Below, piece after piece: positions 21,222 to 57,077 of a stretch of 64,000 nt of DNA. A program made the position numbers and the translations under genes. The notes below the pieces were generated by a model. That model was not told where the DNA came from, did not search any database, and saw only the letters and a list, made by a program, of their open reading frames with translations. The stretch is taken from IMG/VR virus record IMGVR_UViG_3300044712_000786, positions 64,001 through 128,000 of that record; one strand, given 5' to 3'. This DNA comes from a virus (taxonomy: Duplodnaviria; Caudoviricetes). The number at the start of each line of letters is the position of its first letter. Within the stretch, counting starts at the first letter, position 1.

Positions 21222-21409
21222 AGCGCGATGGCGGATTCGAACCACCGACCTATGAAGCTTCTGGCCTCATTGCTCTGGGATTTAGGCAAGTTGTTAACGA
21301 CCCACCATTTACCCCATCCCCACTAGTATACAGCGCACGCAAGCCTTATTCTAGAATTATCTCTATTGCACGCCTTAAACCGTCGAATGAACCGCTGAGC
21401 TAATCGCGC
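21222..21409 (-). ncRNA. tRNA-like RNA with 114 nt insertion in the D loop
   Basis: GCGCGAT/ATCGCGC acceptor; TAGCTCAGCGGT [insert 21390-21277] AGAGCA; GGTGG-TTCGAAT-CCGCC T arm; non-canonical anticodon loop. Confidence 0.75.
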
Positions 21410-21678
21410 ATAAATTCTAGGCTATTAGACTTGCTCCGCTTAGTTATGTATTCCTAAGCATTCTAGCTTCGGGAATTACCCGTCATTATCTAATTCTTTC
21501 CCGCCGAAGGAACAGACAGCATTAACGTAGCTGCCTACACGTTCGAAATTCTGATTGACTTGCGGGGGGTTAAACATAAGCAAGGTAGCTACTCCTCACT
21601 CATGCCGCTTATAGTCGGGATTCCTCCCAATGGGTCTACCCGATTCGCCAGCCGCCAATCAAAGCTGACTTGCTAGCT
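21410..21678 (-). ncRNA. Unidentified structured RNA (~265 nt) heading the tRNA transcript
   Basis: Promoter TTGACT-N16-TAGATT (21679-21712) with no ATG at +1; stems GTCAGC/GCTGGC, GGGA-GGAA-TCCC, GTAGCTACCT/AGGCAGCTAC, CGGG-TAATT-CCCG, GCTTAG/CTAAGC. Confidence 0.6.
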
Positions 21679-22232
21679 AAATTGAATCTACCAAACTTTT
21701 TTCAGAAGTCAAGCTTTAGACTTCGGTATAAGCTACGGTAATATCTACAACCCCATTGCCATACTTCTTCTTAGCTTTCTTTTCAGCTGCATTGTGGGAG
21801 CCAGCTTTAATCAAAGCTATCTCAATTCCATTACAATAAACAATATAGGTCTTCATTAATTTCCTCTCACGTAAGCTTTTTCTTCTGTCTTGCACTTAGG
21901 GCATTCAAAAGTCATAACGTCATAGCCCTGAAAATCTTCCTCTATGTTGAGGAACTTAACCTTAGCGGCATCGAACCGCTCTTTACATTTGGGACAGGTA
22001 ACGAAGTGTCTCATATCTAAAGAATACAAAACCTTTTTAAATTGTCAAGGTCTGTATTTAGTTTCGATGTCCTTTAATTCCTTTTCCTTTTCCGCCTTTC
22101 GCACTAAATACGTTCGCAATATAGTACCGTGATAATCGATTGTCTTATCCAATTCTATAATGTCCCTCTTAAGTTGAGCCCTCTTTTGCTCTATAGAAGT
22201 CCTTACGGCTTTAGGCAGCTTCCAGATTTCAG

Positions 22233-22460
22233 TCATATTTTCCTAAGTGATTTCTTCCAGTCCCCGCCGCTAGGTCCCCCGCATATCTCATATTCATCTC
22301 GTTGGAGACCCCAATAAGACAATAGCATGTCTTCTTCCATTTCTTTGTGAATACGCGGCTTTCTCTTAAACGCGACCCATATACCCCAAGGTTGACGGGC
22401 AAGCCACTTATACCCATTAGGGATTTCTGCGTTAATTAATACAGTCATTAGTCTGCCCAA
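22233..22460 (-). CDS. Hypothetical phage protein
   Basis: IPNGYKWLARQPWGIWVAFKRKP...GGDWKKSLRKI; coupled to 22448-22660 and 22045-22236. Confidence 0.55.
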   Translation of the reverse strand: MGRLMTVLINAEIPNGYKWLARQPWGIWVAFKRKPRIHKEMEEDMLLSYWGLQRDEYEICGGPSGGDWKKSLRKI

Positions 22461-22734
22461 ATTGCGGGAATTGAATGTATGTCTAAATCGCTCGCAAGGA
22501 TAAATCCTTCTATACCCTTAATCTGGATTAATCCCATATAAGGGTCAAGAAAAAGTCCATTGCGAGGACCACTAGGAAAGAAAGCTAAGAACGTCCTAGG
22601 ATTAGTCATCGCATCTGACTGCCTTTCGGCTTCTGCCATTAACTTAGCGAGCGTTTCCATAACCGAAGTATAGAGGGACTTTTTAGAAAGTCAAGCTGGT
22701 TCAAAAAGAGGGGAGTTTTACCTCCCGTTGTCAC

Positions 22735-54727: not shown

Positions 54728-55372
54728 TCATATCTTAGTACAATAATACATAGAAGAGGGGCCATCAACGACTTCTTCTATTTTAAAGCGGGGGGATAAT
54801 ATATCCCTATATTCTTCCTGAGAAATCCAATCAAAGGTAGTTAGATGAGGCTCTAGCCCCGAAGATGTTTGTATATGATGAATCTTATCACCATCCATAA
54901 AAGTGACTTCCATATACCTTCTATTATTTAAGCTATAGCGCCTCGCCTTAGGTTCAGAAGAAGGTTTGCGCCCGAAGGTATTAAACACAAACATACCTCC
55001 AGCAACTAATTTATTAGCTAAGTCTTTGGCATCTATCTCTTTAAGCCAATAATTCACACCTTGACGGCACACGATTAAATCAAATGGCGCGTCTATCTCC
55101 TTAAGCCACCGTTGGATAGAACAATTATGGTATCCAAACTTATGAGAAACATGAGCTTTAAATTCATCGGGCACCATTAAAGGCTCTTGGTCTACTAAAG
55201 CAACAAAATTAGCCCCATGACTCAAAGCATATTGAGATAATAACCCATTTCCACAGCATAAGTCAGCAACGTCCTTACCCTTAATATCCGTCTTAGCGAA
55301 GAATGCCTCGGGGCCTTTCTTTAAGAAACGTGCATAAAGAGCTTGATAAGTTTGATAAGCGGGATATCTCAT
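54728..55372 (-). CDS. Class I SAM-dependent methyltransferase
   Basis: VADLCCGNG, VALVD, FDLIVCRQG, L..GG.FVFNT. Confidence 0.85.
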   Translation of the reverse strand: MRYPAYQTYQALYARFLKKGPEAFFAKTDIKGKDVADLCCGNGLLSQYALSHGANFVALVDQEPLMVPDEFKAHVSHKFGYHNCSIQRWLKEIDAPFDLIVCRQGVNYWLKEIDAKDLANKLVAGGMFVFNTFGRKPSSEPKARRYSLNNRRYMEVTFMDGDKIHHIQTSSGLEPHLTTFDWISQEEYRDILSPRFKIEEVVDGPSSMYYCTKI

Positions 55373-56463
55373 ATTCTATTCCCATTTTTATCTAACAAGA
55401 GGAAACAGCCATGGTCTTGGATGTTAAAAGAACTAAGTATATCTCTTTGAGAATCCCTAACCGTACCTGCGATAGCATAAGGCAACGTAGGCAATTCGGG
55501 TAGCTGCCTATGGAAATGAACGATAGCTTTAACACTTTTGTTTTTCTTAAATAACCAATGCAATAAAGGCGCATTAAGAGTAGCTTTAGCGCCACCAGTG
55601 CAAACCTCACGCAAGTCATGTTTAACAGCGTATACGGGAACTAAATCTTCTAACTCTCTCTTGCCCCTTCCAGTAGTCAAGAAGGCTAGACTCTCTGTTT
55701 CATAGCGAACGGCTATAGTCCCAAATACATATCCTTCGGGAGTTGCCTTAAATTCCTCTTTATAGGTCTCTGCCAGTTTATGGAAAGTGCTCTGTTCGCT
55801 TAAATAGTCGGTTGTTCTACCCCAGACTTCCGTTTTATAGTATTGGTCTTTGACACACGTAATTACAAAATCAACTATTTCTCGATTACTCATAACGTGT
55901 TCCCCACGCTCTTTGGTAACCGCATACTTAGTAAGCAAATCTTTAGCGTCATTAGCAAAAACAGCCGTTGCTTTAGATTCCAATAAAACTCCGTAAGCAG
56001 CACTAATTAACTCTTCATGAGTAACTTCGGATAACAGTTTAAAGCCAAACAAGTGAGTCTTGGGGGCTACCTTTTTAACTTCATCGATAACTCTAGGAGC
56101 AATTGTAAAATCAATAGGTATAACATCCCCCACTTTATAATTATGAGAGGGAAACTTCCCTCTAATAGCATTAAGAGGAATTAAATTGGCTACAGCAGCC
56201 CCAAGAATTACAGCGTCCATTTTGGGAGCTAGCTCTTTTACTTTGTCAATATAGTCATGAATACCACAATGCTTAATTAATGTCATTCTATGGGGATGAA
56301 AAGGAGCTTTAGCTTCAGGACTAGAAAGATACGTAACCTTACAATCCTCTAGACAGAATCTATCCGCTAAATCCGCCATTAACCCACCCTTAAACTTATT
56401 AGTGATGATTTTTACTGCATCTAAATGAGCGTGAACAGGACCACCAGTAATTAAGACTTTCAC
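55369..56463 (-). CDS. CoaB-like (phosphopantothenate-cysteine ligase fold) fused to class II aldolase-like domain
   Basis: KVLITGGP..AHLD.V..ITN...G, DAVILGAAVAN, LFGFKL, VFAN (CoaB/DFP C-terminal motifs); C-terminal NAPLLH...KAIVHFH...HGCF. Confidence 0.7.
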   Translation of the reverse strand: MKVLITGGPVHAHLDAVKIITNKFKGGLMADLADRFCLEDCKVTYLSSPEAKAPFHPHRMTLIKHCGIHDYIDKVKELAPKMDAVILGAAVANLIPLNAIRGKFPSHNYKVGDVIPIDFTIAPRVIDEVKKVAPKTHLFGFKLLSEVTHEELISAAYGVLLESKATAVFANDAKDLLTKYAVTKERGEHVMSNREIVDFVITCVKDQYYKTEVWGRTTDYLSEQSTFHKLAETYKEEFKATPEGYVFGTIAVRYETESLAFLTTGRGKRELEDLVPVYAVKHDLREVCTGGAKATLNAPLLHWLFKKNKSVKAIVHFHRQLPELPTLPYAIAGTVRDSQRDILSSFNIQDHGCFLLLDKNGNRI

Positions 56464-56876
56464 TTAGTTCCTTTCTCGGAGAACTTACTAAAATAGCGCA
56501 AGGGTCTCCAAAGATGATTATTAACCCAAAAGCCCCACTTACGATAGGGACGACTGCAAAGAAGAATAGTCCAAGCCCCACCTTCGGGAATTTCTAAACG
56601 GTGCTGTTTATCTCCCCTAGCATACCATATAGAAGGAGCTTTAATATGTCTACTGCCATCGGGGGTAACATTAGTATAGCTACCTTTGAATAAGATGCTT
56701 ATAAAATCAAAAGGATGGTCATGAAAATGGGGACCAACGTCAGAACCAATCCAGTGATGCAATCTTATTGAATAACCAAACAAGATAAGCGACCAACGGC
56801 GAAGATAAACTTTATCGCCCTGAGTCAGGGTCTCGCGCCTGAATTGAAAAGCTTTAAATTGTTGATAATTACTCAT
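56460..56876 (-). CDS. Cupin-like protein
   Basis: YLRRW...IRLHHW..SD...HFHDHPFDFIS..FKGSY.....G....HRL; true start MSNYQQ at 56876. Confidence 0.7.
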   Translation of the reverse strand: MSNYQQFKAFQFRRETLTQGDKVYLRRWSLILFGYSIRLHHWIGSDVGPHFHDHPFDFISILFKGSYTNVTPDGSRHIKAPSIWYARGDKQHRLEIPEGGAWTILLCSRPYRKWGFWVNNHLWRPLRYFSKFSEKGTK

Positions 56877-56893
56877 GTTCAAACTTAAAGGAC

Positions 56894-57077
56894 TCAGCGA
56901 GGGAGGACTCGAACCTCCAACCTCGTTCATGTAATGAACCCCTATTTACTGACTATCCTCGATTTTCTTACTAGTAGTGAAGGGTTGCAACCCCGCACTA
57001 TGTTCAAATTATCTACTTTTGTCAGCTTTTTCGGGAGGGTTACTAGCCCTGCGCTCTGCCAATTGAGCTACTCGCCG
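56894..57077 (-). ncRNA. tRNA-like RNA (AGU anticodon arm) with 111 nt insertion at position 42/43
   Basis: CGGCGAG/CTCGCTG acceptor, GCTC-AATTGGCA-GAGC D arm, CAGGG-CTAGTAA-CCCT [insert 57035-56925] G, GGAGG-TTCGAGT-CCTCC T arm; promoter TTGCTT-N16-TAGAAT at 57080-57113. Confidence 0.8.

Follow-up and report, generated by a model that had tools for sequence, protein, structure and literature searches.

The virus record IMGVR_UViG_3300044712_000786 of IMG/VR (Duplodnaviria; Caudoviricetes) is a 202,704-bp phage genome with direct terminal repeats, recovered from rhizosphere metagenomes. Here, we analysed bases 64001-128000 of this record, a stretch of 64,000 nt that we call the window. Almost all genes of the window lie on its minus strand, and many of them are preceded by a stereotyped promoter consisting of TTGACx, a 16-17 nt spacer and TAGAAT or TAGATT; these promoters are of the sigma-70 type, indicating a bacterial host. 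Two tRNA-shaped genes on the minus strand, t1 (21222-21409) and t2 (56894-57077), are each interrupted by an insert, i1 of 114 nt and i2 of 111 nt. Both genes are missed entirely by standard tRNA finders: at default settings, ARAGORN and Rfam called a single tRNA in the window, the tRNA-Leu(UAA) at 21127-21215.

Gene t1 measures 188 nt with its insert. Its 5′ exon (GCGCGATTAGCTCAGCGGT, 21391..21409) reads GCGCGAT-TA-GCTC-AGCGGT and holds the 5′ strand of the acceptor stem, U8 and A9, the 5′ strand of the D-stem and the D-loop as far as G18, G19 and U20. Insert i1 (21390-21277) follows in the D-loop, between positions 20 and 21. The 3′ exon (21222..21276) then resumes with A21 and the 3′ strand of the D-stem (A-GAGC), an odd anticodon arm, AGGTC, the canonical T-arm GGTGG-TTCGAAT-CCGCC and the acceptor 3′ strand ATCGCGC. 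When i1 was excised, the D-arm GCTC-AGCGGT-A-GAGC was restored and ARAGORN called a 74-nt tRNA with a 6-bp anticodon stem and the loop CCAGAAG, which has no U33. The anticodon arm ATGAGGC-CAGAA-GCTTCAT can be read with a 5-nt loop on 7 pairs, with the 7-nt loop CCAGAAG on 6 pairs or with a 9-nt loop on 5 pairs; since U33 is absent from every one of these readings, t1 is unlikely to decode normally. Judged as a functional elongator, with a 7-nt anticodon loop carrying U33, t1 falls short even after removal of i1. No homologue of this anticodon arm was found in GTDB genomes, where a further scan returned one chance match inside a coding region.

In t2, the 5′ exon (57036..57077) covers tRNA positions 1-42, that is the acceptor strand, the D-arm GCTCAATTGGCAGAGC, the anticodon stem, the loop CUAGUAA and CCCU, and reads CGGCGAG-TA-GCTC-AATTGGCA-GAGC-G-CAGGG-CUAGUAA-CCCU. 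Insert i2 (57035-56925) interrupts the anticodon stem between positions 42 and 43, and the 3′ exon (56894..56924), G-AGGTT-GGAGG-TTCGAGT-CCTCC-CTCGCTG-A, supplies G43, the variable region AGGTT, the T-arm, the acceptor 3′ strand and A73. With i2 excised, CAGGG and CCCTG again form a stem that encloses the loop CUAGUAA, and a clean 75-nt tRNA-Thr(AGU) was recognized by ARAGORN. The exons of t2 are intact, with 21/21 stem pairs together with U8, A14, G18, G19, A21, U33 and TTCGA. The Rfam tRNA model gave weak matches to both halves of t2 (a partial one at 57035-57068) and none in the inserts, and ARAGORN in intron mode forced introns into the anticodon loop at the cost of poorer structures. In the JGI/ENA metagenome contigs L126-L133, tRNA-Thr genes that share the D-arm GCTCAATTGGCAGAGC with t2 and carry the rare A34 anticodon AGU are uninterrupted, and several of them adjoin other tRNAs, showing that this tRNA type exists outside this phage. 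Scanning JGI metagenomes for the t2 5′ exon returned nothing, and a looser pattern recovered uninterrupted tRNA-Thr(AGU) genes only.

Both loci, inserts included, were letter-identical in contigs from other assemblies and samples, i1 in two further assemblies and i2 in a contig of another sample, which rules out an assembly artefact. Exact-protein look-ups returned nothing but identical copies of both loci, and neither an insert-less allele nor any sequence variation was seen in the metagenome DNA contigs examined. Apparent "skip" joints turned out to be ordinary tRNAs of other organisms with D-arm and T-arm words in common. The relatives of the phage terminase were mostly fragments with at most about 57% identity, apart from one short partial match at 68%, and identity to the terminase of cultured phages was at most 28%.

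The initial annotation had described inserts of 114 and 111 nt in which AGATAATT is followed 26-30 nt later by TACTAGT, and this arrangement was found where it had been claimed, on the minus strand. The 8-mer AGATAATT lies at 21355..21362 in i1 and at 57007..57014 in i2, where it aligns with the tRNA D-arm AGCTCAATT. TACTAGT lies at 21322..21328 in i1 and at 56970..56976 in i2, in the latter as part of the 8-nt palindrome TACTAGTA. The gap between the two words is 26 nt in i1 and 30 nt in i2, a third colinear word, GTAAAT, comes after them in both inserts (21307..21312 and 56944..56949), and the spacing from TTGC to ACTAGT is 15 nt in each. None of the motifs is individually enriched in the window, where AGATAATT was found 3 times against 7.2 expected and TACTAGT 5 times against 7.9. 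The motif AGATAAT, which had also been noted in the RNA at 21410-21678, is indeed present there (21485-21491), yet it is weak evidence, its chance of occurring being estimated at ~4%, since AGATAAT is not enriched in the window either (19 against 21 expected).

We then compared the inserts with control pairs. Any 8-mer in common was seen in 14-19% of these, and an 8-mer with a separate colinear 7-mer in 2.5% (shuffled inserts) to 4.9% (random genomic pairs); when the spacing had to be equal within 5 nt, the figure was 0.37-0.88%. The global alignment of i1 with i2 scored 8.5, attained by 6-8/3000 random genomic segments, and the local alignment scored 18, attained by 18/5000, with a likeness that is colinear and spread across about 90 nt. 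Moreover, i1 scored 18 against i2 and at most 12 against any of 771 tRNA pieces, indicating that the resemblance does not come from a generic likeness to tRNA. No correction for multiple testing was needed, because this was the single comparison named in advance. Taken together, these alignments make homology of i1 and i2 likely, not proven, with moderate significance. The earlier proposal that one element family inserts into tRNA genes at different positions has moderate support, the inserts being more alike than 99.6% of control pairs; the family has just these two members. Since the ends of the inserts are unlike and no target duplication is present, the data do not point to a precise mobile element.

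Aligning each insert with its own exons revealed a diverged direct repeat of t2 positions 6-42 within i2 (insert positions 19-55; 56981..57017, minus strand). Here, AGTAGAT-AATTTGAACATAGTGC-GGGGTTGCAACCCT of i2 aligns with AGTAGCTCAATTGG--CAGAGCGCAGGGCTAGTAACCCT of the tRNA, 28/38 columns being identical (74% identity, with indels). The local score of 14.5 was attained by 0/20,000 random genomic 111-mers from outside tRNA regions, and in a comparison with 771 tRNA pieces from other phage loci the best match to i2 was t2's own exon. The repeat stops at T42, the very nucleotide where the t2 exon is broken. In this alignment, AGATAATT of i2 is a worn copy of the D-arm AGCTCAATT. Seven bases past the repeat lies CTAGTAA (56968..56974), which is identical to the t2 anticodon loop and is matched to it in the second-best alignment; TACTAGT overlaps it. 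With a decayed D-arm behind one motif and a copied anticodon loop behind the other, the motifs of the t2 insert are relics of tRNA sequence and not a ribozyme core. In RNA form, the UACUAGU that overlaps CTAGTAA in i2 could pair with anticodon-loop positions 31-37. The 8-nt palindrome UACUAGUA of i2 (56968-56976, minus strand) could likewise pair with 7 bases of the t2 anticodon loop (positions 31-37; 57039-57046), or alternatively with a second copy of itself or with ACUAGU of i1.

A simple reading of the repeat would be a tandem duplication within an older, ~56-nt insert, the duplicated unit of ~55 nt running from position 6 of the tRNA to position 18 of the insert. The older insert would have been two hairpins, CCC-GAAAAA-GCUGAC...GUCAGU-AAAUA-GGG and GUUCAU-UAC-AUGAAC. 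Because the 18-nt tail of the second unit is 39% like that of the first, we infer the duplication with reserve; a tandem-repeat finder reported nothing, and a three-unit model of t2 with period 55 held for units 1-2 only and was rejected. Likewise, no tRNA nested in i1 or i2 was detected by ARAGORN at low thresholds or by a tRNA profile hidden Markov model. Insert i1 resembles i2 both within and beyond the repeat, and compared with the tRNA sequence, the AGATAATT and TTGC that i1 and i2 have in common are derived. Provided that the likeness is real, i1 would come from an i2-like sequence and not from its own gene, and sequence would thus have moved between two tRNA-like genes.

The folding of i2 is consistent with a structured arm. 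Alone, i2 folded with a z-score of -3.67, and 0/200 shuffles were as good. The predicted fold comprises a CCC/GGG clamp, a helix GCUGAC/GUCAGU, a long central hairpin and the 3′ hairpin GUUCAU-UAC-AUGAAC. The former D-stem strand UAGUG of the repeat now pairs with a downstream CACUA, so that the copied anticodon hairpin extends to 10 pairs; this lengthening is in part why i2 folds better than its shuffles. In the minimum-energy fold of the whole of t2, all four arms are kept and the insert forms a separate domain (z -3.3), indicating that the insert is compatible with a cloverleaf.

Both genes lie in what appear to be transcribed settings. A promoter of the phage type (57086..57113; TTGCTT, 16 nt, TAGAAT) lies ahead of t2, with 6-8 nt between its end and the acceptor stem, and the spacing places the probable transcript start within about 2 nt of that stem; t2 leads an operon with cupin, CoaB-like and methyltransferase genes. 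Upstream of t1 lie a promoter (21685-21712) and a structured RNA of ~265 nt (together 21410..21712), the RNA itself (21410-21678) heading the operon of t1 and tRNA-Leu with a folding z of -2.0 and being identical in three assemblies. This RNA has no Rfam match and, apart from its one AGATAAT (21485-21491), is unlike either insert; its longest complement to the inserts, as would be needed for guide pairing, is 9 nt, approximately the chance level. The uninterrupted tRNA-Leu(UAA) (21127..21215), with an encoded CCA, lies 6 nt downstream of t1. An internal promoter in the inserts was considered and rejected on a single weak 9/12 match, and no terminator was found inside them.

We also searched for further members and homologues. 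No third copy was found in the whole 203-kb genome when nhmmer was run with each insert and with their profile. The covariance-model search of phage tRNA loci that the initial annotation had suggested added no family member: in 476 kb of such loci, a sequence-only model (R1) matched the two training copies alone. Across five related virus records, R1 gave a single 13.5-bit match, which falls within coding sequence and was dismissed as chance. Scanning IMG/VR for the three motifs gave at least 32 matches, in line with chance (estimated at ~20); among the matches listed, none lies in a tRNA or near a T-loop, and a tighter scan in which a T-loop was required returned 0 matches. There is no tRNA upstream of the CoaB-like neighbours in four other contigs, and IMG/VR holds no relatives of the 130-aa protein encoded downstream. 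A blastn search of GenBank phages matched the tRNA-Leu and nothing else, and in the literature we found no description of D-loop inserts or of such interrupted tRNA genes in phages.

The explanation we favour, tentatively and at somewhat less than an even chance for the whole composite, is that a duplication-born insert exists as diverged copies in the two genes and is retained as an extra arm of a tRNA-like RNA. Both i1 and i2 would be diverged copies of one ~112-nt sequence that arose by DNA-level duplication and recombination of tRNA-gene sequence, i1 being a further diverged copy of the i2-type sequence set in a different tRNA-like gene. Both RNAs would be transcribed with the insert, the tRNA body would be held by selection, and the insert would remain in the RNA as an extra arm, self-folding in t2. 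The arm would leave the L-shape at or next to places that tolerate extra nucleotides, namely the D-loop at 20/21 and the end of the anticodon stem by the variable region, and the products would be tRNA-shaped non-coding RNAs rather than ordinary decoders. Selection on the body of t2 is suggested by its stem pairs and conserved bases, all of which are intact while the internal repeat has fallen to 74% identity with indels. Expression of t2 is favoured by the consensus promoter that ends so close to its acceptor stem, and a working t1 RNA by its place in an RNA operon with a good promoter, between the structured 265-nt RNA and a CCA-bearing tRNA-Leu. Several points weigh against this explanation. 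A homologous interrupted gene was not found in IMG/VR, JGI metagenomes or GTDB genomes. Insert i1 folds no better than its shuffles (z +0.18) and is unlike any tRNA exon, its own or those of t2. The insert at 42/43 breaks the anticodon stem itself and not the variable loop. The argument from selection would fail had the internal repeat been derived from a paralogue that had diverged beforehand, and the choice between a retained and a removed insert rests on the absence of known machinery. Further, neither half of the i1-i2 alignment is significant alone (p 0.09-0.14), nhmmer gives no link between i1 and i2, and a common fold is absent, RNAalifold yielding 8 scattered pairs (-2.55 kcal/mol); tested as a family, the inserts show neither a common secondary structure nor compensatory changes.

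These last three points are also what speaks for a chance likeness between unrelated insertions of similar length in AT-rich DNA, a question separate from whether the inserts are retained, spliced or parts of dead genes. The motifs are not enriched one by one, the word pattern occurs in 2.5-4.9% of control pairs when spacing is ignored, and similar length alone means little, since sequence-unrelated inserts of 103-119 nt are present in other phage tRNAs. The initial annotation had itself allowed for chance. In our comparison chance is unlikely, and we regard it as a doubtful account that still deserves serious weight: the pattern with its spacing occurs in 0.4-0.9% of controls, the TTGC-ACTAGT spacing is identical in the two inserts, and the joint colinear alignment was attained by just 0.2-0.4% of random genomic segments (18/5000 for the local score). 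Both genes might instead be dead tRNA pseudogenes, wrecked by duplication and insertion debris and with no RNA function. Such debris is visible in i2, i1 is unstructured, the anticodon loop of t1 is aberrant and no homologues appeared in the collections searched; against these stand exons that keep every stem pair and conserved base beside a decayed repeat, a consensus promoter exactly at the 5′ end of t2, which leads an operon, and the far better than chance folding of i2 with its newly formed long hairpin. We consider this reading unlikely.

Removal of the inserts is the other alternative. They could be introns of a novel type, in which a small element spreads by copying from one tRNA gene to another and is taken out of the RNA by proteins of the host or phage or by an uncatalogued ribozyme, leaving a functional tRNA-Thr(AGU) as well as a second small RNA. 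The perfect exons, which rejoin as clean cloverleaves, the similar length and sequence of inserts at different positions, and the uninterrupted tRNA-Thr(AGU) genes of the same type elsewhere agree with this; so do two otherwise normal, CCA-ending tRNAs of other phages described below, a tRNA-Ile and a tRNA-Lys, which would need removal or tolerance of their inserts. Conversely, no bacterial splicing route is known for such positions, the sigma-70-type promoters indicate a bacterial host and the phage lacks RtcB and EndA, the inserts have no terminal G and no Rfam ribozyme or intron match, the junctions of i1 and i2 are unlike, i1 has no stable fold and the pair no common structure, and the anticodon loop of t1 is non-canonical even without the insert. 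We consider such an intron, with the products named, improbable. It is very improbable that the motifs are a site bound in both inserts by a phage processing enzyme, as had been offered in place of an element family, or by another phage protein. The order of the motifs is kept at similar spacing, and TACTAGTA is an 8-nt palindrome of the kind that dimeric binders prefer; in t2, however, the motifs are explained more simply as tRNA relics, a decayed D-arm and a copied anticodon loop, their structural contexts in the two inserts are not comparable, they are not enriched elsewhere in the window, and no candidate protein was identified.

The inserts of this phage are not the only ones at such positions. 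We scanned for canonical D-arms split by 95-125 nt, which returned, among many adjacent tRNA pairs, at least 2 further cases. In the 424,529-bp contig IMGVR_UViG_3300017565_000001 (L097:3928-4121, plus strand), a tRNA-Ile(GAU) with CCA and perfect exons carries a 119-nt D-loop insert between GGT and AGAGC, the site occupied in t1; the Rfam tRNA model matches its 3′ part only (44.8 bits), and no relatives were found in IMG/VR. In IMGVR_UViG_3300031722_000534 (L098:9644-9820, minus strand), from a contig with more than 30 tRNAs, the same site of a CCA-bearing tRNA-Lys(UUU) is occupied by a 103-nt insert, which holds a D-arm-like AGCTAGTTGGTA; the similarity of this insert to its own exons is not significant. 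Like i1, both inserts follow GGT and precede AGAGC, are of similar length and leave the exons intact. Unlike i1 and i2, they are unrelated in sequence, to these and to each other, and hold no copy of their own exons; unlike t1, the tRNAs that carry them show normal anticodon loops and encode CCA. Repeated occupation of the 20/21 site suggests either a general mechanism or a tolerance of a general kind. The tRNA cluster around the second case (L098:2600-12340, minus strand) has 30 tRNAs called by ARAGORN and about ten orphan T-arms, the latter being parts of 66-68-nt tRNA-like modules and of a weak match to YrlA (Y RNA-like) at 8883-8985 (28.9 bits, E 7e-4). Two other IMG/VR contigs, L114 and L121 (minus strand), carry a full tRNA 5′ half, comprising the acceptor strand, the D-arm and the beginning of the anticodon arm, and, after a stretch of ~100 nt, a second tRNA-like sequence from its D-arm to its 3′ side; no standard tRNA is called at either place. 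In the genome studied here, outside the window at 144890-145056 (minus strand), an orphan canonical T-arm AGAGG-TTCGAGT-CCTCT lies ~75 nt downstream of a tRNA-Val-like arm CTCGC-CTTACAA-GCGAG with possible G-U-rich acceptor pairing, and may be another interrupted or tRNA-derived RNA.

These cases could together represent an undescribed class of phage tRNA intervening sequences, neither of group I nor of the bulge-helix-bulge type, of ~100-120 nt and located in the D-loop at 20/21 and near the variable region. Its members could copy between tRNA genes and would either be removed by an undescribed bacterial or phage splicing route or stay in the RNA as functional extra arms, with i1 and i2 as related members and the tRNA-Ile and tRNA-Lys inserts as unrelated ones; we think this quite unlikely as a whole. 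To our knowledge, the only interruptions recognized in bacterial and phage tRNA genes are anticodon-loop group I introns. The two tRNA bodies described here are intact and hold inserts exceeding 110 nt at other positions, and the D-loop site is also occupied in two unrelated phages. If the inserts are spliced, this would be an undescribed route of tRNA splicing in bacteria or their viruses; if they are retained, the tRNA body would be a natural scaffold on which phages carry additional RNA domains. The internal repeat of t2 also offers a rare view of how an insert may grow when part of the gene itself is duplicated.

No known intron type fits i1 and i2. Group I introns occur in bacterial, plastid and phage tRNA genes, such as those for cyanobacterial tRNA-Leu(UAA) and tRNA-fMet. 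Like them, the sequences described here intervene in an otherwise intact bacterial-type tRNA gene, and the 5′ exon ends in U. Group I introns lie in the anticodon loop, measure ~200 nt or longer, and have a P3-P9 core and a terminal G, whereas these inserts of 111-114 nt lie at 20/21 and 42/43 and both end in C. A search of both loci with Rfam covariance models, that of group I among them (E up to 10), matched no intron or ribozyme family and returned only tRNA halves and noise. With the wrong position, half the minimal size, a terminal C and no Rfam match, a group I intron was rejected.

Archaeal bulge-helix-bulge introns are found at non-canonical tRNA positions, the D-arm included (PMC4090602, PMC3241643). 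They resemble the present inserts in measuring tens to more than 100 nt, in occupying many tRNA positions and in leaving exons that rejoin as a normal cloverleaf (PMC4090602, PMC3241643). They differ in needing EndA and RtcB: the splicing endonuclease EndA (PF01974) and the ligase RtcB (PF01139) are both absent from the 202,704-bp phage genome, and its promoters are of the bacterial sigma-70 type. No pair of 3-nt bulges 4 bp apart was seen at the junctions, which were inspected by eye in minimum-energy folds with no dedicated search for the motif. Given the bacterial promoters, the missing enzymes and the absence of such a motif from the drawn folds, this type was rejected as well. A miniature inverted-repeat transposable element or other small DNA transposon was likewise set aside, with no target duplication (no direct repeats at the junctions of either insert), two copies only and imperfect sub-terminal inverted repeats (8/11 in i1).

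Bacterial 23S rRNA contains intervening sequences that are cut out by RNase III without re-ligation. These are also extra stem-loops of ~100 nt at surface sites of a bacterial structural RNA that still works. Their long closing duplexes, which serve RNase III, contrast with 11 bp with 3 mismatches in i1 and 3 + 6 bp in i2, helices too short for an RNase III-type sequence, and we know of nothing of the kind in tRNA. The remaining comparison is with the extra nucleotides that tRNAs carry naturally, which number 1-3 in the D-loop and reach some 20 nt in the variable arm. The inserts exceed 110 nt, and the exit point in t2 is inside the anticodon stem (42/43), unlike that of a class II variable arm. 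The two regions where the extra nucleotides of t1 and t2 would leave the L-shape are the same as those of the long class II variable arm and of the D-loop nucleotides 20a/20b.

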